DNA from: Candidatus Cloacimonadales bacterium
Lineage (GTDB): Bacteria; Cloacimonadota; Cloacimonadia; Cloacimonadales; JAIOQZ01
Length of the DNA: 64,000 bases
Assembly (NCBI GenBank): GCA_963674825.1
Contig: OY771587.1
Location: forward strand, 1,696,001 to 1,760,000
Reading direction: 5' to 3'
Shown here: positions 1 through 14,298 of the stretch, one piece after another
How the letters are laid out: every line of letters begins with the position of its first letter
Position numbering within the stretch: the stretch's first letter is position 1
The notes under the pieces: generated by a model
Seen by the model: the letters and a program-made list of their open reading frames with translations, nothing else
Databases searched by the model: none
What the model was told of the DNA's origin: nothing
Position numbers and translations under genes: made by a program

Positions 1-1057
1 CGTTTCCGATCAGCGCGCCAGCTTCTTTGAAGGTCTTCAGGAGGCCTTCATAGAGAGCCTGAGTCCAGATGTCGTTTGTGGCCGGGACGATCTTGAGAAC
101 GACGCCCGGAGCCACTTTGCGGCCCTCGAGGATCTTCGCGGCGATGCGAAGGTCTTCGATACGTCCGTTGGTGCAGCTACCGATAAAGGCGGAATCGATC
201 TTCTCCTGCTTGGCTTCGGAAACCATCACCGCGTCTTCCGGGTGTCCCGGGCGGGAAGTCATGGGTACAAACTTGGAGATATCGAGTGTCAGCTCATTGT
301 CATACTTCGCGTCCGCGTCAGCAAAGACGGGCTCGAACGGCGTTTCGGTACGTTCTCTGAAGTAGTCGATGATTTCCTGGCTCGGCGGGAAGAGCACAAT
401 AATTGCGCCCATCTCAGTGGCCATTGAGCTGATGGTGATACGCTCGTCGAGCGTCAGTTCATCAATTGCCTCGCCGTACAATTCGACGGAGTAACCCAGG
501 AGGGTGTTTGCGCCGAAGTGAGCGAGCAGGTTGAGGACGATGTCTTTGGCGTCGATATTATCGGGGCGTTCGCCCGTGAAGTTGAGCTTGATCGATGCGG
601 GAACCTTGAACCACACCTTTCCGTGTGCCCAGGCAGCCGCGATGTCGCGATCACCCATACCCTGGCCGAAAGCGCCGACAGCGCCGAGGATGTTGGCATG
701 GGAGTCGGTGGAAACGACGGTTGAACCCGGGTAGGCGAGTCCTTTCTCAATCACGAGGTGGGTACCGATACCTGCGTCGATATCATAGACCTTGATATCA
801 TTATCGCGTGCATAGAGGCGGCAATACTGCTGATTGGCGGCGTATTTCTGATCAGAACCGGTCGGGTTGCAGTCGAAGGTGAAGAAGGTCTTCTTGGGAT
901 CATCGACGGTGAGGCCGGCGCTTTCCAGATTCTTCACCACGTTAGCGCCACCGAAGTCGCGCGCGGCACGTACGTCGATCAGGATATCGACGATATCATT
1001 CGGCTTAACCACGTCTTTATCGGAGTGGTTTGCGAGAATCTTTTCTATTATGGTCAT
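1..1057 (-). CDS. Homoaconitase / 3-isopropylmalate dehydratase large subunit (LeuC/HacA family), runs off the left edge
   Basis: Not in the ORF track. Hand translation from ATG 1057 (RBS AAGGAG) gives MTIIEKILANHS...; the aconitase [4Fe-4S] motif IGSCTNGR lies near 160-185. Confidence 0.88.
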   Translation of the reverse strand, partial: MTIIEKILANHSDKDVVKPNDIVDILIDVRAARDFGGANVVKNLESAGLTVDDPKKTFFTFDCNPTGSDQKYAANQQYCRLYARDNDIKVYDIDAGIGTHLVIEKGLAYPGSTVVSTDSHANILGAVGAFGQGMGDRDIAAAWAHGKVWFKVPASIKLNFTGERPDNIDAKDIVLNLLAHFGANTLLGYSVELYGEAIDELTLDERITISSMATEMGAIIVLFPPSQEIIDYFRERTETPFEPVFADADAKYDNELTLDISKFVPMTSRPGHPEDAVMVSEAKQEKIDSAFIGSCTNGRIEDLRIAAKILEGRKVAPGVVLKIVPATNDIWTQALYEGLLKTFKEAGALIGN

Positions 1058-1081
1058 TGTAACTCCTTATGCAACTTGCGT

Positions 1082-1155
1082 TTCATCCTGAGCGGAGTAA
1101 AAGGATACCGCAAGTTAATTCATCCAGAGTGCCCTTCGACTCCGCTCAGGGTGAC
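1082..1155. repeat. REP-like inverted repeat
   Basis: TCATCCTGAGCGGAGTAAAAGG ... CCTTCGACTCCGCTCAGGGTGAC are imperfect inverted arms in an intergenic spacer. Confidence 0.7.
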
Positions 1156-1174
1156 ACTCTGAGTACAGACGCAA

Positions 1175-1744
1175 TTATTCTCCGATCAACAGACCTTTGG
1201 TCATCATGACCATGGGGTCGAATGTCGCGAAATCGGCCTGATGGATAAGAACCGTTTCGATGCGTTGCGGACGTCCATCACCTTCCTTGGCGTGATTGGC
1301 GATGATATTGACGATCTCTTCGGGAAGTCCTACGCGGTCAGCGAGGATAGCGCCTGAAATCGGATGACGTGTGCACTTGCCGTTATAGCTCTTGCGATAG
1401 GTGCCATCGACGCATTCGATCTCTTTGAGCTTGCCGACATCGTGCAGCAGTCCGCCAGCGAGCAGGAAATCCATGTTCAGGGTATAGGGCATCTTGCGGT
1501 AGTTCTCTGTAATGGCCTTTGCGAGCCCTACAGCGCCTTCAGTGACCGCCATGGTATGTTCGATAAAGTTGATTCCTTTCGTCTCTGTGAGCAGCGTAAA
1601 CGGGATTTTCTCGATATCTTCGGGTTTCTCCCAGCCGCCTTCCTTCGCTGCGATGACAAAGCACTCAACGGTCTTCTCGCGAATCTCTTCGCTTTCGATC
1701 TTTGAGAGCACTTTGTCGAACACTCTTCTGAAATATTGTTCCAT
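1175..1744 (-). CDS. HD-domain (HDIG-like) metal-dependent phosphohydrolase
   Basis: EHT...LLHDVGK...HPISG...NH...HQAD motifs; RBS GAAGGAG before ATG 1744. Confidence 0.85.
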   Translation of the reverse strand: MEQYFRRVFDKVLSKIESEEIREKTVECFVIAAKEGGWEKPEDIEKIPFTLLTETKGINFIEHTMAVTEGAVGLAKAITENYRKMPYTLNMDFLLAGGLLHDVGKLKEIECVDGTYRKSYNGKCTRHPISGAILADRVGLPEEIVNIIANHAKEGDGRPQRIETVLIHQADFATFDPMVMMTKGLLIGE

Positions 1745-1809
1745 GGTATGTTCTCCTTCTATTGTTCTCACCCCATTGATTTTCAGCAATTGGAAGCTTG
1801 TCTCCATAT

Positions 1810-1844
1810 GCACAGAGGGACTCTTCCGAGTCCCCCCTATGTGC
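1810..1844. terminator. Intergenic stem-loop (terminator or mRNA stabiliser)
   Basis: GCACAGAGGGACTC-TTCC-GAGTCCCCCCTATGTGC; no clear U tract. Confidence 0.45.
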
Positions 1845-1857
1845 TGTTATCAAAGAA

Positions 1858-3048
1858 CTATTTCAGTTTCTCGATGATGGCGTCGGTAACCTGCATGGTC
1901 GATGCGGCGCCGCGCTCTACGACTTCGGGCGTACCCTTCATCTTGAGCATATCGTATGTGCGAACCTTGCCCTCTTCCACTACTGCTGCCACAGCATTGC
2001 GAATGCGGGTGGCTTTTTCGGTTTCGCCGATGTGGTCGAGCATCATACATGCGGAAAGGACCATCGCGATCGGATTGACGATCGGGGTCTTGTATTCAGC
2101 GTATTTAGGAGCAGAACCATGGGTAGGTTCGAAAACCGCCACTTCCTTGCCGATGTTTGCGCTGCAAGCGAAGCCGAGTCCGCCAACCAGACCTGCGAAA
2201 CCGTCGGACACGATGTCGCCGAACATGTTTCCGGCTACGATTACACCGTAATCTTCCGGGTTCTTGGTCAGCCACATCATCTGAGCGTCGATGTTGGTGT
2301 TCCAGAGGGCGATATGCGGATATTCCTTCTGAATTTCTTTGCTGAGCGCGAGCATCATGCCGGATGTTTCACGTATTACATTCGGCTTTTCGCAGAGGGT
2401 AACCGACTTGTAACCAAATTTATCGGCGTGCTCGAAAGCAGCGCGGATGATGCGTTCGGAGTATTTCTTTGTGAAAATACGAGTGGAGACAGCCAGCTCT
2501 TCGCGTGGGCTCCAGCCGAAGTTCTTGCTGAATTTCGGGTGGGTCATCAGTGCGTCATAGACCTGGTCGCCGGGGTTGGTCCATTCTACGCCGCCGTAAA
2601 GGCCTTCGGTGTTCTGGCGGAAGATCGCCACATCTACTTCAGGCTCTTCGATGGTGTCGTTGGCACCCTTGCGGATGAAGTTGAGCGGATTACCCTTGAA
2701 GGTCTTGCACGGACGCAGACAGATATCCAGGTCGAAGTGCTGACGAAGACCGACGATGGGGCTATAATAGACGTAACCCTTATCCTGAAGCTCGGGAGCG
2801 AGTTCCTTTGCTGCATCTGATTTGGGCTTTGACGTGATTGCGCCGAAAAGGCTGATCTTGTGCTCTTTGAGCAGATCGATTGTACGCTGCGGAAGGGGAT
2901 TTCCTTCCTTGCACCAGAATTCCCAGCCGATGTCGGCGTGGACGTACGACGCGCGGAAATCAGCCGCTTCAAGTACGCGGATTGCTTCCGGAAGTACGAT
3001 TTTGCCGATGCCGTCGCCAGGCATCAGTACGATTGTCATATTCGCCAT
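1858..3048 (-). CDS. Isocitrate/isopropylmalate dehydrogenase family, probably homoisocitrate dehydrogenase
   Basis: PGDGIG, NTEGLY, NMFGDIVSD and FEPTHGSAP motifs. LFGAITS...YSPIVGLR resembles the fungal Lys12 segment LFGAVQS...YSSPIVALR. Confidence 0.85.
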   Translation of the reverse strand: MANMTIVLMPGDGIGKIVLPEAIRVLEAADFRASYVHADIGWEFWCKEGNPLPQRTIDLLKEHKISLFGAITSKPKSDAAKELAPELQDKGYVYYSPIVGLRQHFDLDICLRPCKTFKGNPLNFIRKGANDTIEEPEVDVAIFRQNTEGLYGGVEWTNPGDQVYDALMTHPKFSKNFGWSPREELAVSTRIFTKKYSERIIRAAFEHADKFGYKSVTLCEKPNVIRETSGMMLALSKEIQKEYPHIALWNTNIDAQMMWLTKNPEDYGVIVAGNMFGDIVSDGFAGLVGGLGFACSANIGKEVAVFEPTHGSAPKYAEYKTPIVNPIAMVLSACMMLDHIGETEKATRIRNAVAAVVEEGKVRTYDMLKMKGTPEVVERGAASTMQVTDAIIEKLK

Positions 3049-3095
3049 AGTTTCCTCCGAAGATTCTATATTTTTAGTGCTTTGAGTTCATAATC

Positions 3096-3133
3096 ACCCT
3101 CACCCGTATACGGTAGAGGGCCGGGGTGAGGGT
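3096..3133. repeat. REP-like hairpin
   Basis: ACCCTCACCC ... GGGTGAGGGT, a perfect 10-bp inverted repeat just past the citF stop. Confidence 0.6.
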
Positions 3134-3135
3134 CC

Positions 3136-4686
3136 CTACTTCACTTCTCTGACAACGTCGATCACGGTTCCATCGACCCACTTGATCGCCGCGACAACCT
3201 TCTGCCCGAGCGTTGGCATTTCGGCCTTACCGCAGATCGCCTCGGCTTCTTCCTTCAGTTCCTCAATGGTCTTGATGGGAAGGCCGGAATCCTTGGTCGC
3301 TTCGATGAGGTCTTTTCGGCGTGGATTGATCGCGATACCGCGTTCGGTAACGATGATATCGATCAGTTCGCCCGGACCGCAGATGGTGGTAACCTCGTCA
3401 CGAATGACGGGGATACGATCGCGGAAAAGCGGGATGGGAAGGATCACGTTCTTGCTGAAGAGGCAGTTCTGCCAACCACCTATACCATGCAGCAGATAGC
3501 CGTCGGAATGGGTCACGACGTTGGCGTTGAAATTAACGTCAACTTCGGTTGCGCCCAGGATGACGATATCCACCATGCTGGCGAAGTTGCCTTTGCCGTG
3601 GTAGTTATAGCTGGTGAATGGGCTTGTCCAGACGTGCGTCGGGTTCTCGCGCATGGAGCGGACGCCTTCGAGATCGAAAGTCTGGCCGTCCAGAATGTGC
3701 GTGATGAGCCCTTCTTCGAGCATCTGAACCAGGTATTTGTTGCTGCCGCCGCGTGCGAATCCACCTTTCATACCTTTCCGCTTGAGGATCTCGGAGAAGT
3801 AGATACCGATAGAAAGGGCGGTTCCACCAGCGCCAGCCTGGAAGCTGAAGCCGTCTTTGATCAGTCCGGCTGCTTCACAGAACTTCGCTGTCAGCTCGGC
3901 GATGTAGAGACGGTCAGGGCTACGGGTGATCTGGGTGGTGCCGGAGACGATCTTCTCCGGGATACCGACCTTGTCCATCTCAACTACGAAATCTACGTAG
4001 TTGCCCTGGATCTGCCACGGTGTGCAGGGGAAGGGAACGAGGTTGTCGGTAACCACTACAACGCGATCCGCATACTGTGAATCGGCCAGTGCGAATCCCA
4101 GCAGACCGCATGCCGAAGGGCCGGTAACAGCGTTTGCGTTACCGAAAAAATCAGCCGTCGGCGCAGCGATAAAAGCGATGTCGATATGAACTTCGCCGTC
4201 CTGAACTGCTTGGTAGCGTCCACCGTGAGAACGAAGAACGCCGGTTCCGCGCATCTTGCCTTGCGAGGTGAACTTACCCAACGGGCCGTTCATGCTGCCT
4301 TCGATGTGGTGAATGGTGCCGTCCTCCAGGTAGGGAAGTAGCTCACTGTGGCAGGGGAACGATGCGGACGGAAACCATACGAGGTCCTTGATGCCCAGTT
4401 CGTGTGCTGCGTGGAAGACCTGATTGGCCACCAGGTCGCCGTTGCGGAAGTGATGATGAGTGGAGATGGTCATGCCGTCTTTGATGCCTGACTTGACCAG
4501 CGCTTCTTTGATATCCTTCACGCGTTTGTCGCCATCTGCGGGGTAGTCCATGCAGGTAGCGATGGGTGGTGCGGCTTTGCGTCCGGTGGGGCGATACTTG
4601 CCTACGCCCATGAAAGGAACAACCGGCTTGCCGTTTATCTCTTCCGGAATCATCCTTCCGACTGCGTTTTTGACTTCTTTACTCAT
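3136..4686 (-). CDS. citF: Citrate lyase alpha subunit (citrate CoA/ACP transferase)-like
   Basis: GMTISTHHHFRNGD, RSHGGR, FQAGAGG, ILGATEVD, VTERGIAINP and DGTVID motifs; start MSKEV overlaps the upstream gene. Confidence 0.92.
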   Translation of the reverse strand: MSKEVKNAVGRMIPEEINGKPVVPFMGVGKYRPTGRKAAPPIATCMDYPADGDKRVKDIKEALVKSGIKDGMTISTHHHFRNGDLVANQVFHAAHELGIKDLVWFPSASFPCHSELLPYLEDGTIHHIEGSMNGPLGKFTSQGKMRGTGVLRSHGGRYQAVQDGEVHIDIAFIAAPTADFFGNANAVTGPSACGLLGFALADSQYADRVVVVTDNLVPFPCTPWQIQGNYVDFVVEMDKVGIPEKIVSGTTQITRSPDRLYIAELTAKFCEAAGLIKDGFSFQAGAGGTALSIGIYFSEILKRKGMKGGFARGGSNKYLVQMLEEGLITHILDGQTFDLEGVRSMRENPTHVWTSPFTSYNYHGKGNFASMVDIVILGATEVDVNFNANVVTHSDGYLLHGIGGWQNCLFSKNVILPIPLFRDRIPVIRDEVTTICGPGELIDIIVTERGIAINPRRKDLIEATKDSGLPIKTIEELKEEAEAICGKAEMPTLGQKVVAAIKWVDGTVIDVVREVK

Positions 4687-5890
4687 GGTCCCTCCAGTCC
4701 TCCGCGAGGAGGCCCGATTTGATCGCCAGCGTGATAGTTTTCTGAGCACGTTTGACGACCGGCGGATCGATCATCTTGGAACCGAGCGCGACAACGCCGA
4801 GTCCCTTCTCTTCCGCTTCGTGGAACGCCTTCACGATTCGTTTTGCTTTCGCGATTTCTTTCTCTTCTGGTGCGTAAGCAGCGTTGATCACCGGGATCTG
4901 GCGCGGATGGATACAGCCCATGCCTTCGAATCCGAGCGACTTGCCCTCGGTAGCGAAGTGGTTCAGGCCATCCATGTTATCGATATCGGAATAGACAGAA
5001 TCGATCGCCTGGATACCGGCTGCCCGGGCTGCGTTGACCAGCATGCAGCGTGCGAAGTAGGTCTCTTTTCCCTCTTCGGTGCGTTGCGTGCCGAGGTCGG
5101 CCGTGTAGTCTTCCAGTCCGATCGCCAGCGCGACCACCTGCGGTGACGCGGATGCGATCTGGTAAGCATTCATCACACCCTTCGCCGATTCGATGATGGG
5201 CATGATCCAGATATTCGATGCTTTTTCTTTATCCTTCTGGACGTCGTGAATCTTCGCGACCACATCATGGATCTGGCTCGCTTCCTCGCATTTGGGAAGC
5301 AGAATCAGGTTCACGCCGTGGGGTACGATGAGCTCGATGTCTTCCAACCCCATGGGAAGCTGGTTGATGCGCACCATACGCTCTGCGCCGTAGAAATCAA
5401 CATTACGCAGCGAATTGCGCACGACGAAACGTGCTTCGTATTTCTTGGGGGGCGCAACTGAATCTTCCAGGTCCAGGATGATGCCATCGGGCTGATGGAT
5501 TCCAGCGTTGATCGCCAGCTTGGGGGTGTTACCCGGAAGATAGAGACGAGCGCGGCGGAATTGATCCCGGCGGGTGAGGTTAGTATTTTGCGGAAGTGCG
5601 TCGAGCAGGAATTCTTCCTTCGTGTCGATGCATTTCTTGATTGCGGCTTCGATACGGGCGCTGATTACGTAATCGAGTGCGCCAGCGTCATCGATTTTGA
5701 GGTAGGCATTTTCGATCTTGTAGAAGTCCAGAATATCTTCTGTGAGCTTCTGGATCGATTTGCCAAAGAGCGCTTTGACCTTGCTTTCGATAACGATTTC
5801 CCGGCCACCGTTGTCTCTGATTTCGAGCGTAACGCGGCAGTCTGAGCGTACATCGTCACCGAAGTTTCCGATAGTGCATTGGCTTTGCAT
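4679..5890 (-). CDS. citE: Fusion of a CitD (gamma/ACP)-like domain with a citrate lyase beta subunit (citryl-CoA lyase)
   Basis: N-terminal ~90 aa are CitD-like (SD.RV, SKVKALFG, DAGALD..I.ARIEAA). The rest has LYLPGN, DLEDSV, VRIN, IIESAKG, CIHPRQI and MIDPPV. Confidence 0.9.
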   Translation of the reverse strand: MQSQCTIGNFGDDVRSDCRVTLEIRDNGGREIVIESKVKALFGKSIQKLTEDILDFYKIENAYLKIDDAGALDYVISARIEAAIKKCIDTKEEFLLDALPQNTNLTRRDQFRRARLYLPGNTPKLAINAGIHQPDGIILDLEDSVAPPKKYEARFVVRNSLRNVDFYGAERMVRINQLPMGLEDIELIVPHGVNLILLPKCEEASQIHDVVAKIHDVQKDKEKASNIWIMPIIESAKGVMNAYQIASASPQVVALAIGLEDYTADLGTQRTEEGKETYFARCMLVNAARAAGIQAIDSVYSDIDNMDGLNHFATEGKSLGFEGMGCIHPRQIPVINAAYAPEEKEIAKAKRIVKAFHEAEEKGLGVVALGSKMIDPPVVKRAQKTITLAIKSGLLAEDWRDHE

Positions 5891-5900
5891 GCGGAACTCC

Positions 5901-7196
5901 TTATTTCAGGAACTCGCCGATGTATTTGTATTCGGGTTCCAGTTTACCTTGATGTATGATGATCGATTTTTTTATCGGGTATGGCAGGTCTGATTCCTCG
6001 ATGGGCTTGGACCAATCGTTGTCCAGCATCGCCTTCATGAAAGGAAGCAGTGCTCTCGTGAAGCCATCGGAAGCCTCCATAGAGAATTCGCAGGGAAGGT
6101 TATCTACTGCGCAGATGGTAACACCGTTACCCATGTAGCCGTCTTCGAATTTGTCTTCGACAGCGTTGTACGTGTAGACAGGGTTATCTGGATAAGTGGC
6201 TTTCACGGTTGCTTCGATGGAACCTTCGATGTCGCAGGTGATATCGCCGATCGCGATCATCTTACCGCCACTCTTCTGGAGCTCGGCGATATCGGCCTTG
6301 GTCAGGAACACGGGGTATCCCGGAGCCCAGTAGATGGCGTTCATGTAGATCGAGCAATATGGCAGGTACGGCTTCATCTTCGATTCGTACTGGGGACCGT
6401 TCTTGAAATAGTCCATCAGATCGAATGAGCCGTCATCCTTGCGCTGCACCAAGTGTTTTTCCTTGAACACCGCGAGGTAGATACGGTCATTTTTGTAAGC
6501 TGTATCGAGCATGCCAAGATCATCAGGATCGATCTCTTCGATCGGCATTTCCGAGATGATTTCACGGCAGCCGGAGGCTACATGACCGTAACCGAGTTGG
6601 AAGATAACCAGAGGACCGATCTCTTTGGGAAGCCCGTCGCGCTTGATCTCTTCGCCAAGCTTACGAAGGTGCTCGACGGCATCGGACACACGCTCGTATT
6701 CGAATGCGCGTTTGACTTCAGACAGCGGGGTCTTCAGTCCGTAATGCTCTTCCAGGCGTCTACCGACAGCCCACAGCGTATCGACCATTCCGGCGTTACC
6801 GGCGAACTTGCCAAAGAATACCAGACGACGATTCTGCTCGTCGACGATGCGCTCGTAGTCCAGGATCGAGCATTTTGCGTCCATGAATTCGCGCAGCATG
6901 GGCATGTTGTAGTCCTGTCCCTTAATGGTGTGCGAGAAGAACATATGCGGTTTTCCGGGAACCATATCCGGGATCTTGATCTCTTTCACGCCAATGATCA
7001 GGTCACACAGGGAAAGATCATCGGAGATAGTTGCGCCAACGGCTTGATATTGATTGTCTTTGTAAATACGTAGTTCGGAGGGTTGCACAACGACTTGATA
7101 TCCTTGATCGATCAGCTCTTTGACTGCCTGCGGATTCAGGGGTACTCGTGCTTCCCATTGATTCTTGGTTTCTCTAAGTATTCCAAGTTTTTTCAT
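5901..7196 (-). CDS. Lysine-ketoglutarate reductase / saccharopine dehydrogenase (lysine-forming), AlaDh/PNT fold, AASS-LKR-like
   Basis: RETKNQWEARVPL, GVKE, FFSHTIKGQ.YN, DYE...RRLVFFG.FAG, DITCDIEGSIE and AVDNLP.E motifs. Confidence 0.88.
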   Translation of the reverse strand: MKKLGILRETKNQWEARVPLNPQAVKELIDQGYQVVVQPSELRIYKDNQYQAVGATISDDLSLCDLIIGVKEIKIPDMVPGKPHMFFSHTIKGQDYNMPMLREFMDAKCSILDYERIVDEQNRRLVFFGKFAGNAGMVDTLWAVGRRLEEHYGLKTPLSEVKRAFEYERVSDAVEHLRKLGEEIKRDGLPKEIGPLVIFQLGYGHVASGCREIISEMPIEEIDPDDLGMLDTAYKNDRIYLAVFKEKHLVQRKDDGSFDLMDYFKNGPQYESKMKPYLPYCSIYMNAIYWAPGYPVFLTKADIAELQKSGGKMIAIGDITCDIEGSIEATVKATYPDNPVYTYNAVEDKFEDGYMGNGVTICAVDNLPCEFSMEASDGFTRALLPFMKAMLDNDWSKPIEESDLPYPIKKSIIIHQGKLEPEYKYIGEFLK

Positions 7197-7234
7197 GTAC
7201 AGACTCCACTCACTTTGTTACGAATTTCACCCCA

Positions 7235-7283
7235 TGGACAACGTGCATCGCATGGCGAAAAACCACGCGATGCACCCTGTTCA
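7235..7283. other. Intergenic stem-loop
   Basis: GTGCATCGC (7243-7251) pairs with GCGATGCAC (7267-7275), with flanking and inner pairing. Confidence 0.55.
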
Positions 7284-7305
7284 GAAACTATATTGAGCGA
7301 ATCGA

Positions 7306-8628
7306 TCAATCATAAAATCGTTCGATCACCTTGATATCCAGATTGCCGAGTTCTTCCAGAACTGGAAGGTAGACTTCCGGCATTACGGGCATATGGACGC
7401 CCGGGACGAAGAACTTTCCTTCGAGAATGTAGCGCACCGCGATTGCTGCCGGAAGGGAGACTGTGCGGGACATGGAGCTGTCGCCGTTCTCGATACCGGT
7501 ATCGATCATCGTAGAGGTAATGCGCTGTTCTTTATCGCCAAATGCGGCCACGAATTCGTGGTGGAGCACCAGTAGATCGCGTTCGCCCTTATCGTAAGAC
7601 ATCTTTTCAAGCATCAGCGCGGTGAGAACATCAACCGCCGAGCCTTCTTTAATCGGCATCGGAGTATCGCCGATGATTCCGAGCCATTCGAATTTCTTCA
7701 GGATAACGCTGTTTTCGAGGATACCGTAGCGCTTGACGATTTCTTCTTTGAGGCATGCGTCTTTCGATGCGCCGAGGACTTTCTCGAGCACGAATTCCTG
7801 AACGGTGCCGCTCAGGTTGTTATAATAATCGTCATCGTTGAAGAATCCCATCTGCGAAAGGATGAACCATGTGTCGCAATGACTGACGTTACGCAGGGTA
7901 CCACGGTACATGGTGCGGACGTCTTTGAGACTGTAGAGGTCAATATAAGGAAGGGAATCGCGATTGACATACGCTTCGAACGTGCCGGCTCCCTCGACAT
8001 CGAGGAACCAGTAGTGGCTGAAGAGGTTCTTGCCGGGGACTTCGATAATCTTGCCGTCTTTCATATAACGTGCATTATTACCGGCAGCCTTGAGAACGCC
8101 CTTGGGCGCCCAGCTGAATTTGTATCCCCAGGGATTGGTGTTGTCTTGGTGTGCGGGAAGTCCGCCACAGTAGGACATGAAGGATACGATCTTGCCGCCC
8201 TTTTCTTCCACTTCGTGGAAAATCTTCATCGCGGACATGTGGTCGATGCCGGGATCCACGCCGATTTCGTTCAGGATCATAATGCCGGCTTCTTTTGCAG
8301 CGGCATCCAGTTCGCGCATCTGAGGGCTGATATACGAAGTAGTCACCATATTGGTCTTGAGTTCGATACACTTCTTCGCAACTTCCACGTGCAGTGTGGC
8401 AGGCAGAAGACTCACTACCAGATCACTTTCCTTGATCAGATCTGCCATCTGTTCCATGTCATTCGCAACAAATTGAATTGCAGTAGCCTTCTCGTGTGGT
8501 GCAGCCAGTTTTTCCGCTTTAGAAAGGGTTCTGCTTGCGATCACGACTTCAAAACCGTTTTTCGCGAGGTAATCGACCATAGGCTTTACGACCAGACCCG
8601 CTCCAAAAATGGTTACTTTCTTTGCCAT
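7306..8628 (-). CDS. Saccharopine dehydrogenase (glutamate-forming; Lys9/SDH type)
   Basis: GAGLV Rossmann motif, SLLP..H, TTSY, NEIGVDPGIDHM, SYCGGLP, YKFSWAP.G and RGTLR; RBS GGAGG before ATG 8628. Confidence 0.93.
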   Translation of the reverse strand: MAKKVTIFGAGLVVKPMVDYLAKNGFEVVIASRTLSKAEKLAAPHEKATAIQFVANDMEQMADLIKESDLVVSLLPATLHVEVAKKCIELKTNMVTTSYISPQMRELDAAAKEAGIMILNEIGVDPGIDHMSAMKIFHEVEEKGGKIVSFMSYCGGLPAHQDNTNPWGYKFSWAPKGVLKAAGNNARYMKDGKIIEVPGKNLFSHYWFLDVEGAGTFEAYVNRDSLPYIDLYSLKDVRTMYRGTLRNVSHCDTWFILSQMGFFNDDDYYNNLSGTVQEFVLEKVLGASKDACLKEEIVKRYGILENSVILKKFEWLGIIGDTPMPIKEGSAVDVLTALMLEKMSYDKGERDLLVLHHEFVAAFGDKEQRITSTMIDTGIENGDSSMSRTVSLPAAIAVRYILEGKFFVPGVHMPVMPEVYLPVLEELGNLDIKVIERFYD

Positions 8629-8777
8629 CGGTATCCTCCGTTCCGGGTAGATTTTACGATTTGCCGATGAGGAGCATAAGTCCATGCCGCATCGGGAAAT
8701 CGCTTGTCTTCACAATTTCCGGATTTTGGCTTTCAAACACCGCCGGTATTTGAATCCGGTAACTGTTTTGGTTGCAC

Positions 8778-8805
8778 AGTTTGGTGTTCGCTTTTTACGT
8801 GTCAA
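8778..8805 (-). promoter_or_regulatory. Putative sigma70 promoter of the saccharopine operon
   Basis: Minus strand TTGACA-N16-CAAACT; the -10 box is weak. Confidence 0.35.
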
Positions 8806-8901
8806 CCATTATCGAAAAAAAGACGGATTTTATCGAAGGTAAAAGTTGGAATTCTTTTGGGTTATGGTTAGGAATAGGGATAATTTATCATCAACACGCG
8901 G

Positions 8902-9951
8902 CTACTGGGCCATTTCCTTTTTGGGTGTCTTCAGCCCCGTCTCGAGCTTGTTTCGCACTTCTCGCTTTACCCGGGCTGCAAGCTTCATATCGTGATCCTT
9001 CAGGAACTTCTCCACAGCAGGGCGATCGTATTTGATCATCTTTCTGAGTACCCACGACAGCGCTTTGACGATCATGTCCTCATGATCCTCGACCATCATC
9101 TTACTGAATCGAAGCATCCGCTTAACATCACCATTGAGGTATATTGTACTCACCAATGCTACACGTCTGCGCCAGAAATCGCTCGACTTCGCCCAAGTCA
9201 GAAGCATCGAATCGGGGATTCGACGGTTCAGCCATGCCGGACCTACGATGTACTGAGCGTAGGTATCTGCAGCAGCCCAGTCGTCTATTCCTTTACCAAG
9301 GCGTTCAACCAGGCCGGGCTCGATTGTCTTCATCGAACTTTTATGATGGTGAATCAGCTCGTAGGCAAAGTTCCGTAGATTGTATTCGAACAGCAAGATG
9401 GCACCAAGGCTCGATAGCTTTTCCGCCGGTACATCCTTCCATATTTTCGTGTAATACTTGCGTATCTCACGTATGCTTTGCATATAACCGTCACTGAGAA
9501 GTTCCAAGTGTCGGGCGATTGTTCCTGCCTGGATTTTAGGTTCAAAGCTAACTTCCAGCTTCTTCAGCTTGAAGCGATCGCGATTTTCCGGGGTATCGTA
9601 GTAGAGATGCCAATGCTTGACTTTATTGCCTTCGACTTCGCAAAACCATATCAGAGATTGCTTGAACTCGCGATCTTCGGGAATACCTGTATGAGAGCCG
9701 GTCGTTCTGCCAATAATGATTACCTGATCACCGTTATGATAGATTTCCGAGACATAAATATGATATGCTGGCCAGTGCTCCATGTAGAATTTCCACCAAC
9801 TGACTAATGTATCATGCCGGTAAATTTCTTCGAGATCGATATCGACGAAGAGATGGTCGTCGGTCATCATTCGAGTAATTGTATCAAGATTATTTTCGTT
9901 GATTGCGGTGATGTAATCGAGAGCCGTTCGTACTGGTTTCGTGACTTTCAT
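8902..9951 (-). CDS. SnoaL/NTF2-like domain fused to an AlkD-like DNA alkylation repair (HEAT-like) domain
   Basis: N-terminal NTF2-like ~125 aa; C-terminal DDWAAAD, W.KS.DFWRRR and MIVKALSWVLR motifs. Confidence 0.75.
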   Translation of the reverse strand: MKVTKPVRTALDYITAINENNLDTITRMMTDDHLFVDIDLEEIYRHDTLVSWWKFYMEHWPAYHIYVSEIYHNGDQVIIIGRTTGSHTGIPEDREFKQSLIWFCEVEGNKVKHWHLYYDTPENRDRFKLKKLEVSFEPKIQAGTIARHLELLSDGYMQSIREIRKYYTKIWKDVPAEKLSSLGAILLFEYNLRNFAYELIHHHKSSMKTIEPGLVERLGKGIDDWAAADTYAQYIVGPAWLNRRIPDSMLLTWAKSSDFWRRRVALVSTIYLNGDVKRMLRFSKMMVEDHEDMIVKALSWVLRKMIKYDRPAVEKFLKDHDMKLAARVKREVRNKLETGLKTPKKEMAQ

Positions 9952-10050
9952 TCAGGTTTCCTTGCTGGAGTTTGTGACTAACACCCTTATCTTAAAGACA
10001 TGATACACTGTTTCTGGAATAAGTCAAGGGAAAGATTATTGTATCTTACG

Positions 10051-10090
10051 AAAAGAAACGTTGCGGCTATATATAAAGACAGCCGCAAGT
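10051..10090 (-). terminator. Intrinsic terminator
   Basis: TTGCGGCT/AGCCGCAA stem followed by a T-rich tract on the minus strand, after the YCF48-like gene. Confidence 0.55.
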
Positions 10091-10127
10091 TATGCCTTAA
10101 TAATGATTCATGTTCATCGCATCATTG

Positions 10128-11201
10128 TCAGTTATTTGCGCCGATGAAATGGATGTCCCAGAGACCGCCTTCGGTGCCGTAGCTCACCTGATTCCAGTTG
10201 GTACCGCCGTCGGTTGTATGCAGCATGATTCCTGTGCAGGGAGGAAACTGCTCCATGCCGCAGATCCAGGCGTCATTTTCATTGAATGCGCAGATTCGCA
10301 GCATGTAGTATCCCGAAGCATCGGAAACCTGCGACGTCCAGTTCTCGCCGTTATCGGTGGTTTTATTGATGTTGCCGTAATCGGATACGATCCAGACAGT
10401 GTTTTCATCTACTACTACGACGCCGTTTACATCGAAGATCACTTCACCGAATGGGCATTTTCGCTCCCAGGTTGTTCCACCGTCGATGGTCCGAAGAGAT
10501 GTCGCGTGACCAGCGATCCATGCGACATCTGCATTGAGGACGCTCATGGAGATGAGGTAATCTTCACTCACCATCGTCGTGTCGCTTTCGCAGACCCAGC
10601 TTGAACCGCCGTTGGTTGAGTGCAGGATCATGCCGTCGCCACTCGCAGTTGCTCCGCAGATCCAGATGTTGTCGTAATCGACTGCGACGATATCGCTGAG
10701 AATGCACATGCTGTAGTCCGGGTCAGAGCGATCATTCCAGGTCTCGCCGCCATCGTTGGAGACGAGTATGGTGCCTTCACTGCCTGCGACCCAAAGGGTG
10801 CTGTAGTCGAGTGGGCTTACTGCGCTGAGCTCGACATCAGGAAGCGCTCTGGAAGCACCGAGGTTGGTCCAGGAAGTACCGCCGTCAGTTGTCTTGAGGA
10901 TAACGGCGTGGCCATCCGCATTGCCGCCGACGACCCACACGTTCAGGGTGTCGATAGCCCGTACTTGATGTAGCGAGACATTCGGAATGGAGAGAGAATC
11001 CCCCTGACGAATCCATGTATCACCGCCATCGGTGGTGTGGACAATCGTGCCGTAGCCGTCAGTTTGGTCGCCCACGGCCCAGCCGTACAGGGTCGGATCG
11101 AAGTTTTCAGCGCCGTCATCGTTGCCGGTCGAGCTGTCGGAGCAAGATACGATCATTGCGATCAAAGCGAAAAAGAGTAGTGCTGATATGGTTGTTTTCA
11201 T
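10128..11201 (-). CDS. YCF48-like / BNR (Asp-box) repeat beta-propeller lipoprotein
   Basis: Lipobox IVSC and repeated T.DGG..W boxes. Confidence 0.85.
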   Translation of the reverse strand: MKTTISALLFFALIAMIVSCSDSSTGNDDGAENFDPTLYGWAVGDQTDGYGTIVHTTDGGDTWIRQGDSLSIPNVSLHQVRAIDTLNVWVVGGNADGHAVILKTTDGGTSWTNLGASRALPDVELSAVSPLDYSTLWVAGSEGTILVSNDGGETWNDRSDPDYSMCILSDIVAVDYDNIWICGATASGDGMILHSTNGGSSWVCESDTTMVSEDYLISMSVLNADVAWIAGHATSLRTIDGGTTWERKCPFGEVIFDVNGVVVVDENTVWIVSDYGNINKTTDNGENWTSQVSDASGYYMLRICAFNENDAWICGMEQFPPCTGIMLHTTDGGTNWNQVSYGTEGGLWDIHFIGANN

Positions 11202-11406
11202 AGATATCCCCCTCGTAATCCGGTTTTTTGCACCTGGTTTCAATGGAAATCGATATTCGCGCAGAAGCTATCTCATATAAAAAATATGGTCGAATCATAC
11301 CGAACGGGTAGTGAAAAATTAAACCTTGCCAAGCAATTGCCATTGGATAGTATTTGGCAAAGGGCAACTGTCCTTATACGTAAATAATAGTGTTTTATGG
11401 AGGTAG

Positions 11407-14298
11407 GTGATGCACAGAAAATTGCTGTTCTTTTTATTCATACTGATTTTCACCGCTACATTGTTCGCACGTCCAGCTTACGATATGAGTATGTATCGCA
11501 GTGTTCTGGATGATATACATTCCCGTGCCGATTCCGCGCACGGATTCGACGTCCTCTCATACGACGTAACAATCGATATCGATCAGCAGGAAGAGTACAT
11601 TGAAGGCATCGTCCTGGCTACGATCGACGCCGAAGAAAACCTTACCCAGATTACTTTCGAGCTGGAAGAGCTTACAGTCGATGAAGTGCTGGTCAACGGC
11701 GAAAGCACGACGTTTACCCATGATAACGGCGAAATCGATATTGCATTGACCGACATCGAGTCCGGCGACGAATTCGTGGTGCAAGTAAGCTATTACGGCT
11801 ATCCGCAGCTCAGTAACGATGTTTATCACATCGGTATGATCTTCAGTGGTTCCTATGTGTTCACGCTGTCCGACCCCAGCGGTTTGCGCTGGTGGATGCC
11901 ATCGTACGATCATCCGTGGGAAAAGGCAGAATACGATTTTCATATCACCATGCGTGATGATTGGCTGGTTGCCTGTAACGGCATTCGTACCAGTATCGAA
12001 GACAACGGTGATGGTACTCGCACCCATAACTGGGACGGCTCCTCACCTATGGCGGGGCATCTGGCTTGCATTACTGCCGCTAATTACCAGGAACTCAATG
12101 ACAACTATGGCGATCTTCCCATCCAGAACTTCGCCACCGCTTCTCTGTACGACGAAGCCGAAGAGGATTTCTCCAACCTGCCTTACATGATCGAGGTTTA
12201 CGAGAGTGTTTACGGAGAATATCCTTTCGAAAAATATGGCAACACCATCGTTCCCATGCAGACTTTCGGCGCTATGGAACATCAGACTATGACTACAATG
12301 GGAAGCAGCTTCATCGACGGAAACCACGGCGGCGAAATCACGATCGCACATGAGCTTTCCCATCAGTGGTTCGGAAACTGCGTCACACCGCTTACCTTCG
12401 ATCACGTGTGGCTCTCCGAAGGTTTTGCAGTCCTCTCGGAAGCGATCTACATGGAACACTGGCAGGGTTTCGACGCGATGGTTAATTATGTGGATACCAG
12501 CATCCATGGATACTATATCAACTGGGCCAATTCCAACGGTGCGCGCACCATCTATGCGCCTCCTTACAACGAAACCTTCTCACCGCCGGTCTATGAAAAG
12601 GCCGCGTCCGTGCTGCATATGCTCAGATTGATCATGGGTGACGACGCCTTCTTCACGGCTGTTCAGACCTATTTCCAGACCTATCACAACGGCTGGGCAG
12701 TCACTGATGAGCTGCGCGCGATAATGGAAAGCGAATCTGGCCTTGATCTTGGTCAATTCTTCGAGCAGTGGATTTACTCCCCAGGACTCCCTTCAACCGA
12801 GTACGCGCTTTTCTTCGCAGGGATCGGCTCCTACAGTCCGCAGATGCTTTCCGTTGTGGAAACGACATCCAATACCGACACCGATTTTCATATACAGATA
12901 CCCATCCATGTGCAGTGGGAAGAGCATTACGACTCGCTGCTGGTCAATGCGAATCCCGGCACACCGGCTATTCAGGTCAGCGACTTGACCGGCATTGGCG
13001 ATTTCGAAGCGCAGATGGACCCGCATCACTGGGTGATCACCCGTAGCAACACCGCACATGAAATGAACCTTATCGACGCCTCCGCCACCGATGGCGAGGT
13101 GATCGTCTTTTGGGAAGCGTTCTGGGAAGATGCGCAGGTCGATGGTTACAACATCTATCGTTCCGATCAACCCGACGAGGGTTTCGTGCTGCTCAATGAC
13201 GAGCCCGTTTCTGGTGTGACTTATGCCGATGATGCCGTAAACAACGGACAGACATACTACTACTACGTAACCGCGGTAAAAGACGGATTCGAGTCGCTTT
13301 CTTCCGATTCGATGGAAGCTACTCCGATCGATTTCCCCATGGATCAGGGTGTACTGGTCGTGGATGAGACACGCAATGGCTCCGGTACTGTTGGGAATCC
13401 TGACGATTACCAGGTCGATTCCTTCTACAACACCGTGATCAACAACAATTTCACCACCCACGATCTCGATTCCGACGGCGATCTCCAGATCATCGAGATA
13501 CGCAATTATTCGACTATCATCTGGCACGACGACGATGTGACTGAGCAGAATATCGGTGATTACGAAGGTGTTCTAACCAGCTATCTACTGGCGGGTGGCA
13601 ATCTTGTAATAAGCGGATGGAAAACGGCTTCCGAGCTTTCGGAATCGTTCTGTGAGACCTTCCTTGGTACGTCGGATATCACGTTTTCATCTACTTCAGA
13701 TTTCTCCAGTGCAGTATCAGGCAATTACCCCGGCTTGAATGTCGATGAAGACAAGGTGCTTTCCGTCTGGAACGGTATGCTGCCATATGTGAGTGTGTTC
13801 GGAAACAATGAAGCTGCGATATACAGCTTCCACAGCGATATCAACAGCAACCAGGAAGGGCTGCCCTGCGCGATCAAGTTGCAACCAAACGGCACCGTCT
13901 ATTTCCTCGGTTTTCCGCTTTATTACATGCTGCAAGAACAGGCCGAACTGCTCTGTAATCAGATACTGACAGAACTAGGCGAGACGGTTAGCATTGAGCC
14001 GGAACTACCGCAGCAGCCGATGATTCAGTTGTCGGTGTTCCCCAATCCTGCTCAGGCGACAGATGGACTCTCCATCAGCTTCTCTCTACCGCAACAGGAA
14101 AAGATCGATGCCGCGATTTACAACATTCGCGGACAGTTGGTTGCGAAAGTATCGTCAGGTGTCTTCACGGAAGGCATCCACAGCCTCTATTGGGATGGTA
14201 TGGACGATCAGCACCGGCTGGTTTCCAGCGGTGTTTATTTCCTGAGACTGGAGACTCCAAGCCAGAGTATGACGCGCAAGGTGTTGATTCTTCGCTAA
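11407..14298 (+). CDS. Secreted M1-family aminopeptidase with FN3-like domain and FlgD-Ig/T9SS-like C-terminal domain
   Basis: Signal peptide, GAMEH, HELSHQWFG-x-EG, VYEK, YNIYRS...YYYYVTAV and a PNP...YNIRGQ tail. Confidence 0.9.
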   Translation: MMHRKLLFFLFILIFTATLFARPAYDMSMYRSVLDDIHSRADSAHGFDVLSYDVTIDIDQQEEYIEGIVLATIDAEENLTQITFELEELTVDEVLVNGESTTFTHDNGEIDIALTDIESGDEFVVQVSYYGYPQLSNDVYHIGMIFSGSYVFTLSDPSGLRWWMPSYDHPWEKAEYDFHITMRDDWLVACNGIRTSIEDNGDGTRTHNWDGSSPMAGHLACITAANYQELNDNYGDLPIQNFATASLYDEAEEDFSNLPYMIEVYESVYGEYPFEKYGNTIVPMQTFGAMEHQTMTTMGSSFIDGNHGGEITIAHELSHQWFGNCVTPLTFDHVWLSEGFAVLSEAIYMEHWQGFDAMVNYVDTSIHGYYINWANSNGARTIYAPPYNETFSPPVYEKAASVLHMLRLIMGDDAFFTAVQTYFQTYHNGWAVTDELRAIMESESGLDLGQFFEQWIYSPGLPSTEYALFFAGIGSYSPQMLSVVETTSNTDTDFHIQIPIHVQWEEHYDSLLVNANPGTPAIQVSDLTGIGDFEAQMDPHHWVITRSNTAHEMNLIDASATDGEVIVFWEAFWEDAQVDGYNIYRSDQPDEGFVLLNDEPVSGVTYADDAVNNGQTYYYYVTAVKDGFESLSSDSMEATPIDFPMDQGVLVVDETRNGSGTVGNPDDYQVDSFYNTVINNNFTTHDLDSDGDLQIIEIRNYSTIIWHDDDVTEQNIGDYEGVLTSYLLAGGNLVISGWKTASELSESFCETFLGTSDITFSSTSDFSSAVSGNYPGLNVDEDKVLSVWNGMLPYVSVFGNNEAAIYSFHSDINSNQEGLPCAIKLQPNGTVYFLGFPLYYMLQEQAELLCNQILTELGETVSIEPELPQQPMIQLSVFPNPAQATDGLSISFSLPQQEKIDAAIYNIRGQLVAKVSSGVFTEGIHSLYWDGMDDQHRLVSSGVYFLRLETPSQSMTRKVLILR

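Follow-up and report, generated by a model that had tools for sequence, protein, structure and literature searches.

A conserved eight-gene operon of Cloacimonadota suggests anaerobic lysine breakdown by a reversed aminoadipate pathway

What pathway would combine the saccharopine enzymes of lysine metabolism with homologues of citrate lyase? Both lie in one run of genes at the left end of a 64,000-nucleotide stretch of Candidatus Cloacimonadales bacterium (assembly GCA_963674825.1, contig OY771587.1, positions 1,696,001 to 1,760,000), which we call the window. A first-pass annotation of the window had proposed that lysine is degraded through 2-oxoadipate by steps of the fungal aminoadipate pathway run backwards, ending in a homocitrate lyase. 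We find that the conserved operon is real and that it probably encodes an undescribed route of lysine fermentation. In the reading that we consider likely, lysine is broken down anaerobically via 2-oxoadipate, which would then be carboxylated, isomerised and cleaved to acetate and 2-oxoglutarate; the lower half would be the aminoadipate pathway in reverse, with a lyase replacing the synthase.

The genome (G000) is one contig (C1), 99.57% complete, and its operon proteins group with those of named Cloacimonadota records. Window positions 1–8628 hold seven co-oriented, closely spaced genes on the minus strand, and the position, common orientation, close spacing and families first described for them were all borne out; Pfam and NCBIfam both support every family call. 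First in the operon is saccharopine dehydrogenase (SDH; 7306..8628, 440 residues), of the Lys9/AASS-SDH family, with PF16653 and PF03435 above cut-off. Then come an AASS-type lysine-ketoglutarate reductase (LKR; 5901..7196, 431 residues), called by its match to the LKR domain of human AASS; a fusion of a CitD-like domain to a CitE-type acyl-CoA lyase (CitDE; 4679..5890, 403 residues; TIGR01588, NF009726), the proposed homocitryl-CoA lyase; a CitF-type CoA-transferase (3136..4686, 516 residues; TIGR01584), the proposed acetyl-CoA:homocitrate CoA-transferase; a beta-decarboxylating dehydrogenase that resembles homoisocitrate dehydrogenase (HICDH) and has an NADP-type motif (1858..3048, 396 residues; best NCBIfam model AksF); an HD-fold protein (1175..1744, 189 residues; PF01966); and a fused aconitase-family hydratase, Acn1 (598 residues; TIGR01343), whose 5′ part fills 1..1057 and whose remaining 739 bp run off the left edge (C1:1695261-1697057). 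From SDH to the aconitase gene the intergenic gaps are 109, 10, -8, 87, 113 and 117 bp, and a GGAG-type ribosome-binding sequence precedes every chosen start. The aconitase family was called correctly at first, but the gene is a fusion of large and small subunits and not a lone large subunit. Likewise the count of seven holds for the window but not for the operon: 30 bp after Acn1 starts a second fused homoaconitase-family gene, Acn2 (C1:1693461-1695230, minus strand, 589 residues; TIGR01343), so that the operon comprises eight genes, SDH, LKR, CitDE, CitF, dehydrogenase, HD, Acn1 and Acn2.

The genes just left of the window are thus the rest of Acn1 and Acn2, and homocitrate synthase is not among them. 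Family searches of G000 for absent genes, run with positive controls that scored, found no homocitrate synthase elsewhere in the genome either; apart from pyruvate carboxylase subunit B there is no HMGL-like gene, and G000 therefore has no homocitrate, isopropylmalate or Re-citrate synthase. The lack of a synthase noted at first within the window holds genome-wide, and the feared synthase just outside it is not there. The same searches found no citrate synthase.

From the observed gene content, families, motifs and distribution we infer substrates, direction, the division of labour between the hydratases, the use of free CoA and the stereochemistry, as follows. LKR would join lysine and 2-oxoglutarate into saccharopine, and SDH would split this into glutamate and aminoadipate semialdehyde. 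The semialdehyde would be oxidised to aminoadipate by piperideine-6-carboxylate (P6C) dehydrogenase or, in relatives that lack this enzyme, by a tungsten-type aldehyde oxidoreductase; a LysN-like aminotransferase would turn aminoadipate into 2-oxoadipate and yield another glutamate. In an NADPH-dependent step the NADP-type dehydrogenase would then add CO2 to 2-oxoadipate, giving homoisocitrate. Acn2 would remove water from homoisocitrate to leave cis-homoaconitate, to which Acn1, or PrpD in other lineages, would add water again to form homocitrate, probably the (S) isomer. CitF would move CoA from acetyl-CoA to homocitrate, releasing acetate, and CitE would cleave homocitryl-CoA to acetyl-CoA and 2-oxoglutarate. 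The sum would be lysine + 2-oxoglutarate + CO2 to 2 glutamate + acetate, with 2 NADPH consumed and 2 NADH formed, a redox-balanced conversion of NADPH to NADH. Judged by values from the citrate series, the lower steps lie close to equilibrium at standard state, and at cellular concentrations the pull comes from the cleavage of one molecule into two.

All of the upper steps have genes or candidate genes in G000. LKR matches the human AASS LKR domain at an E-value of 6e-78 over residues 4–427 and yeast Lys1 at only 1e-14 over residues 8–138; it is AASS-type and not a Lys1-type lysine-forming dehydrogenase, which agrees with its first description as nearer the catabolic enzyme. SDH matches the yeast enzyme (6e-91), fungal saccharopine reductase (6e-89) and human AASS SDH (4e-78) in the Protein Data Bank (PDB), a similarity that is uninformative on pathway direction. 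The aldehyde dehydrogenase and aminotransferase that had been out of view both have candidates elsewhere in G000. P6C dehydrogenase, above its curated cut-off, lies unlinked to the operon at C1:2631934-2633457. Two class I aminotransferases start at C1:2789055 and C1:219683; the best matches of the former are multi-substrate enzymes and it matches Thermus aminoadipate aminotransferase at 2e-89, which makes it a LysN/KAT-II-like candidate. With this candidate aminotransferase, LKR, SDH and semialdehyde dehydrogenase complete the saccharopine-catabolism set. We found no alternative exit for 2-oxoadipate in G000: no glutaryl-CoA dehydrogenase was above cut-off (the single acyl-CoA dehydrogenase scored 304 bits against 470), and an HglS query had no match. 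G000 also has genes that resemble 2-oxoacid:ferredoxin oxidoreductase and succinyl-CoA synthetase, whose products could oxidise 2-oxoglutarate for energy.

Two further observations concern these enzyme families. G000 has a second, shorter saccharopine-dehydrogenase-family gene (382 residues, C1:1453757-1454902), which may encode a lysine 6-dehydrogenase, and a homologue 53% identical to it lies near the operon in locus L011. In family f13 of the phylum the gene immediately before LKR and SDH encodes an ornithine aminotransferase (L099:7332-11219, L102:11418-15380).

Is the association conserved? A genome scan with the dehydrogenase gave at least 598 confirmed stretches, of which the best 80 loci were analysed; they come from Cloacimonadota, Bacteroidota, Ignavibacteriota, Chloroflexota, Aminicenantes and others. 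Among these 80, many of them on short contigs, HD was found in 57, CitF in 23, CitDE in 22, LKR in 5 and SDH in 4. The complete eight-gene order recurs in two more Cloacimonadota genomes (G001 and G020), and of the 47 phylum genomes in which both LKR and CitF could be placed, 29 have the two no more than 6 kb apart. A Carboxylicivirga locus (L056) has the order CitDE-CitF-dehydrogenase-HD-Acn1-Acn2-P6C dehydrogenase-LKR-SDH; its LKR and SDH are only 33–35% identical to those of G000 and stand in reverse mutual order, which suggests independent joining. The synteny check suggested by the first-pass annotation thus came out in favour of conserved linkage, both as the same order within the phylum and as a differently ordered operon in Bacteroidota. 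An Anaerolineales run (L069) contains a P6C dehydrogenase domain scoring 758 bits against a cut-off of 730; the frame that carries it (L069:14584-17226) merges P6C dehydrogenase with the C-terminal half of FtsH and is probably an assembly join. Two loci (L071 and L075) have, after the hydratases and in place of CitDEF, genes for an ATP-grasp subunit and a ligase-citryl-CoA-lyase fusion, and the genomes of both gave no CitF match. As judged from these families, part swaps of this kind, and that of PrpD described below, would preserve the proposed chemistry. HglS-family genes occur in 6 of the 80 loci, and in 6 of the 80 the best model for a gene, below its cut-off, is YdiJ (2-hydroxyglutarate dehydrogenase).

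Extent of overlap with the known anaerobic lysine fermentation was followed in 161 Cloacimonadota genomes of at least 80% completeness. The lysine 5,6-aminomutase gene kamD was found in 104 of them and, by the same search, not in G000. LKR was found in 50, CitF in 49 and a dehydrogenase orthologue in 47, the last count after seven weak matches (six f12 genomes and G151, 37–42% identity) were dropped. All three module markers were present in 45 genomes and at least one in 52, and only one genome (G091) had both kamD and the module. Six had neither; all six belong to a single family, are small and carry true lysA. Family f4 alone divides into 30 genomes with the module only, four with kamD only and one with both, and the swap is therefore not confined to the deepest split. 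Apart from G091, the kamD genomes (103 of 104) had no module and no lysA above cut-off. P6C dehydrogenase was found in 21 of the 161 genomes, all 21 module-bearing; across the 52 module genomes, 16 had P6C dehydrogenase only, 26 aldehyde:ferredoxin oxidoreductase only, five both and five neither.

Outside the phylum, 50 of the 80 loci were chosen and their whole genomes searched. CitF was found in 45 of these, LKR in 39, lysA above cut-off in 19 and kamD in two. Both LKR and CitF were present in 34, and 16 of the 34, including the L056 genome, also had lysA above cut-off, so the module is not needed there for lysine synthesis. Among named species, Labilibaculum euxinus has LKR, CitF and dehydrogenase; the enzymes of the module are soluble. 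The near-exclusion with kamD and the co-occurrence with lysA in other phyla favour catabolism, as first proposed.

By contrast, the same enzymes might run forward, or both ways, as a lysine biosynthesis without a synthase: CitE and CitF would condense acetate with 2-oxoglutarate, the dehydrogenase would decarboxylate, aldehyde:ferredoxin oxidoreductase would reduce aminoadipate, and SDH and LKR would complete lysine. We regard this as unlikely. It would account for the missing lysA of G000 (DapB and a DapF-like gene are present there but, lysA being missing, were not accepted as lysine synthesis) and for the finding of lysA above cut-off in only one of the 52 phylum module genomes. The aldehyde oxidoreductase in 31 of those 52, an NADH-linked form of it adjoining P6C dehydrogenase in G000, the nearness of SDH to fungal Lys9-type enzymes and the near-equilibrium of the steps point the same way. 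Yet the module complements the catabolic marker kamD and not lysA, and the 16 outside genomes already have lysA. LKR is AASS-type, and NAD-linked P6C dehydrogenase, which in practice works one way, sits within the L056 and L069 operons. The oxidoreductase is also found in 77 of the 104 kamD genomes and in none of the 15 genomes of families f13–f15.

Because it is present in 107 of the 161 genomes, 77 of these kamD-bearing, aldehyde:ferredoxin oxidoreductase was rejected as a dedicated module member. In G000 it is split, in a run that ends with P6C dehydrogenase (L087:9808-17457, equal to C1:2625808-2633457): one half combines the N-terminal domain with a thioredoxin-like 2Fe-2S domain, the other combines the C-terminal domains with an Fe-S module, and a NuoF-like gene separates the halves; a ThiF-family gene comes after them, before P6C dehydrogenase. 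The domains suggest an electron-bifurcating enzyme whose parts have been rearranged, and its full-length C-terminal fusion occurs in 18 of the 161 genomes. Sub-cut-off lysA-like matches, in 53 phylum genomes (53 of 61 matches), were not counted as lysA; the only two looked at score equally or better on another decarboxylase model and lie outside any diaminopimelate context. In two kamD-bearing genomes such a gene is part of a conserved run and stands between genes of 355 and 720 residues (L095:5061-9671, L096:5241-9825).

What does the lyase cleave? The CitDE fusion scores 287 bits on TIGR01588 (cut-off 443) and 64.7 on the CitD model NF009726 (cut-off 65), and its CitE domain is 40% identical to E. 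coli CitE. CitF is 38% identical to its E. coli counterpart and scores 506.8 bits on TIGR01584, slightly above the cut-off of 501.45. The 24 module CitFs form one group, separate from E. coli CitF. At the position of E. coli CitD Ser14, which we take to be the carrier (prosthetic-group) site, the CitD-like domain has Arg15; the residue after it is Ser, kept in 21 of the 22 rows that cover the region. CitG, CitX and CitC build and activate the citrate lyase prosthetic group, according to PMC10798043. None of the three was found in G000, and CitG was in none of the 161 phylum genomes, so the operon lyase is not a canonical acyl-carrier citrate lyase. CitG was found in one of five genomes searched outside the phylum (G191), there within a separate canonical operon, citE-citF-citXG-citC. 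This genome also has a module CitF, 77% identical to that of G000, while its canonical CitF clusters with E. coli CitF; it is a natural control in which canonical citrate lyase and module lyase coexist. Free CoA and (S)-homocitrate are the probable reactants of the module lyase.

Further citrate-lyase-type genes were seen in two settings. Paired module-type citF genes, adjacent or almost so, occur at L010:4587-7831 and in G032, G139, G161 and G177, and the two L010 copies belong to different subgroups. A second CitE-like gene of G000 (C1:2699459-2700806), 29% identical to the operon CitE, overlaps a MaoC-type-dehydratase-like gene beside sugar-modification genes.

The dehydrogenase has the catalytic motifs of its family. 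It scores 277 of 500 bits on AksF, 258 of 410 on the archaeal isopropylmalate/homoisocitrate subfamily and 181 bits on leuB. Its Ile98 aligns with Asn in three isocitrate dehydrogenases and with Ile in Thermus HICDH; over the 80 aligned sequences, Ser-Pro-Ile is present in all and the isocitrate motif Ser-x-Asn, before the first catalytic Arg, in none. The Lys12-like YSPIV.LR segment pointed out at first thus recurs as SPIV..R in 80 of 80. Lys315-Tyr316 are as in E. coli NADP-dependent Icd, an NADP motif kept in all 80, where NAD-labelled isocitrate dehydrogenase and Thermus HICDH chains have Asp-Ile. We take these positions to set substrate (Ile98) and cofactor (Lys315-Tyr316).

These data bear on a second alternative, in which the six lower genes serve as a citrate/isocitrate branch, either for reductive cleavage of 2-oxoglutarate via citrate or for glutamate synthesis, and LKR and SDH are attached through the shared 2-oxoglutarate. 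G000 would seem to have room for such a branch, with no citrate synthase and, by tblastn with the operon genes, no second isocitrate-dehydrogenase-family gene and no aconitase-family gene beyond Acn1 and Acn2. CitF clears the citF cut-off, and the dehydrogenase has isocitrate dehydrogenase as its top PDB match and the NADP motif of Icd. We nonetheless think this branch very improbable. Ser-x-Asn is in 0 of 80; one aconitase suffices for citrate, but two hydratases, or one and PrpD, are retained, and one variant (L058) passes the fungal homoaconitase model. Moreover, CitC, CitG and CitX are absent from G000, canonical citrate lyase coexists with the module in G191, and the dehydrogenase is unmatched at an E-value of 1e-20 in 103 of the 104 kamD relatives.

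The two hydratases would divide the conversion of homoisocitrate to homocitrate between them. Acn1 (396 bits) and Acn2 (468) both pass TIGR01343 (hacA_fam, cut-off 385.7), score 394 and 459 on the archaeal isopropylmalate-isomerase model (cut-off 410), match small-subunit models too and keep the three cluster cysteines. In an aconitase tree made with a quick search they fall in separate, fully supported groups. Nine loci have a PrpD-family gene, none of them with Acn1; the PrpD-like proteins score well below PrpD cut-offs (74–104 bits). The aconitase of one of these variants, L058, scores 864 bits on the fungal homoaconitase model, above the cut-off of 530.

Throughout the CitE family the lyases have pro-S specificity, and the name of the curated CitE model designates a pro-S lyase. 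By the priority rules, applied to the homologous substrate, the substrate would therefore be (S)-homocitrate. Homocitrate synthase makes (R)-homocitrate; the cleaved isomer is thus probably (S), and the route not an exact mirror of the fungal one. An ordinary aconitase would then not link homocitrate with cis-homoaconitate. As set out in PMC3556520, fungi use two hydratases (aconitase and homoaconitase), and (2S,3S)-methylcitrate needs a dedicated dehydratase with syn-elimination, aconitases performing trans-elimination only. This elimination is what PrpD carries out, and a need for a step of this type would explain PrpD in the hydratase slot. PrpD and AcnD/PrpF are interchangeable, and AcnD requires the isomerase PrpF, according to PMC5690661. 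By analogy Acn1 would parallel AcnD, though no PrpF was found in G000. The scheme first proposed is supported overall, with three amendments: there are two hydratases where it had one, the lyase is not of the canonical carrier type (no CitC, CitG or CitX), and the fungal pathway is probably not mirrored exactly.

A third alternative would give the lower module other or broader 2-oxoacids to shorten (branched-chain acids, longer homologues), or 2-oxoadipate from sources besides lysine, with lysine as one input. LKR was not found in 11 of the 50 outside genomes, Acn1 and Acn2 score nearly equally on homoaconitase and archaeal isopropylmalate-isomerase models, and several loci have genes like 2-oxoacid:ferredoxin oxidoreductase next to the dehydrogenase, all of which would suit such a module. 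Wherever neighbours name a substrate (LKR, SDH, P6C dehydrogenase, HglS), however, they indicate lysine or 2-oxoadipate; the L069 genome, with no LKR match, still has P6C dehydrogenase, and the dehydrogenase prefers AksF (277 bits) to leuB (181). We therefore hold a broader role to be improbable.

Several observations weigh against lysine breakdown as we propose it. G000 itself has no lysA, SDH is marginally nearer fungal biosynthetic enzymes than AASS, and, with an NADH-linked aldehyde:ferredoxin oxidoreductase next to P6C dehydrogenase, the synthetic direction is chemically open. CitF clears the citrate-lyase alpha cut-off. The dehydrogenase reaches no curated family cut-off, HICDH models included, and its top PDB match is NAD-isocitrate dehydrogenase (5e-58, against 5e-54 for HICDH). 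The kamD pattern comes from kin that are not independent and amounts to a handful of lineage switches, for which we claim no statistic; two Labilibaculum genomes and G091 carry kamD as well. Three f4 genomes (G054, G154, G155) have LKR without CitF or dehydrogenase, and among the 50 outside genomes LKR was not found in 11 and CitF not in five. LKR lies within the fetched flanks in just five of the 80 loci, and dehydrogenase, CitDEF and LKR-SDH are unlinked in families f13–f15. Finally, the proposed scheme assigns no function to the HD gene. Its motif His is not conserved in most homologues: the window subtype is 60–71% identical to those of G001, G020, L071 and L075 and 33–41% to most others, in which the His is replaced. 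The best fold match is a weak one, YhaM (E-value 6e-4, template-modelling score 0.62), and Atlas places the protein only in generic HD clusters. A role in editing the carrier protein was set aside, the gene also being kept in both ATP-citrate-lyase-like loci.

How does the route compare with known systems? Saccharopine lysine catabolism (AASS, ALDH7A1/P6C dehydrogenase, aminoadipate aminotransferase) shares LKR, SDH, P6C dehydrogenase and the LysN/KAT-II-like aminotransferase with G000. Known saccharopine routes, bacterial examples among them, take 2-oxoadipate to glutaryl-CoA or through the O2-dependent HglS; G000, where glutaryl-CoA dehydrogenase and HglS were not found, instead links them to a carboxylating, lyase-ended module. 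With the upper alpha-aminoadipate pathway of fungi and Thermus the module shares two hydratases and an HICDH-like dehydrogenase, and the L058 variant has a fungal-type homoaconitase; unlike it, G000 has no homocitrate synthase, its cofactor motif is NADP-type where Thermus HICDH has Asp-Ile, and its CitE-type lyase would imply (S)- and not (R)-homocitrate. Citrate lyase (CitCDEFXG) has CitF, CitE and a CitD-like domain in common with it, but the module fuses CitD to CitE, has Arg at Ser14, lacks the maturation proteins and has a separate CitF group. The reductive tricarboxylic acid branch, which leads from 2-oxoglutarate through isocitrate and citrate to oxaloacetate and an acetyl unit, matches the module in its three reaction types and in their sequence, and two loci have an ATP-citrate-lyase-like pair instead of CitDEF; the substrates proposed for the module are one carbon longer and derived from an amino acid, and the isocitrate motif is absent. 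A PrpD-family or an aconitase-family gene fills one slot of the module, as PrpD or AcnD/PrpF does in the methylcitrate cycle, although the PrpD-like proteins are below PrpD cut-offs and G000 lacks PrpF. Kam fermentation (KamA, KamDE; via 3,6-diaminohexanoate) has the same proposed role, lysine use without oxygen, and no enzyme in common.

Every proposed reaction has a precedent one carbon shorter, and the enzyme families are known; the whole pathway was not found in print. Our literature search, which left most subscription journals and all supplements outside, gave no description of the route and no use of 'homocitrate lyase', in keeping with the first-pass annotation, to which no description was known. 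At its widest, the proposal has about an even chance of holding in full: a widespread anaerobic lysine pathway that would fix one CO2 per lysine by reverse 2-oxoacid elongation, with an NADPH-driven HICDH, Acn1 or PrpD as (S)-homocitrate hydratase and a lyase that acts on (S)-homocitrate independently of a carrier and has a vestigial CitD domain, that would replace Kam in about one-third of sampled Cloacimonadota and occur also in Bacteroidota, Ignavibacteriota, Chloroflexota and other phyla, and that might be a reversible lysine-to-glutamate line where aldehyde:ferredoxin oxidoreductase replaces P6C dehydrogenase. If true, it would extend lysine catabolism by a route that needs no oxygen and that has three enzyme activities not yet assigned (homocitrate lyase, reductive homoisocitrate dehydrogenase, (S)-homocitrate hydratase), explain Kam-free lysine fermentation in that third of Cloacimonadota and in many Bacteroidales and Anaerolineae, and place a heterotrophic CO2-fixing step within anaerobic protein breakdown. 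It would also give a cell without citrate synthase a source of glutamate carbon, and correct the annotation of many genes now called citrate lyase, isocitrate or isopropylmalate dehydrogenase, or isopropylmalate isomerase.

Around the operon, an Rfam scan of window positions 1–12000 at an E-value of 0.1 had zero matches, and a lysine riboswitch was not found; promoter and terminator scans of the locus did no better than chance, and a plasmid search gave a single distant match. Directly upstream on the same strand, window positions 8902–9951 encode a protein that joins a SnoaL-like domain to an AlkD-like domain of DNA-alkylation repair, a fusion not seen in related loci. L001:1-6964 holds the 3′ part of a huge repeat protein of more than 2300 residues, with many near-identical units of about 90 residues and a C-terminal sorting-type domain.

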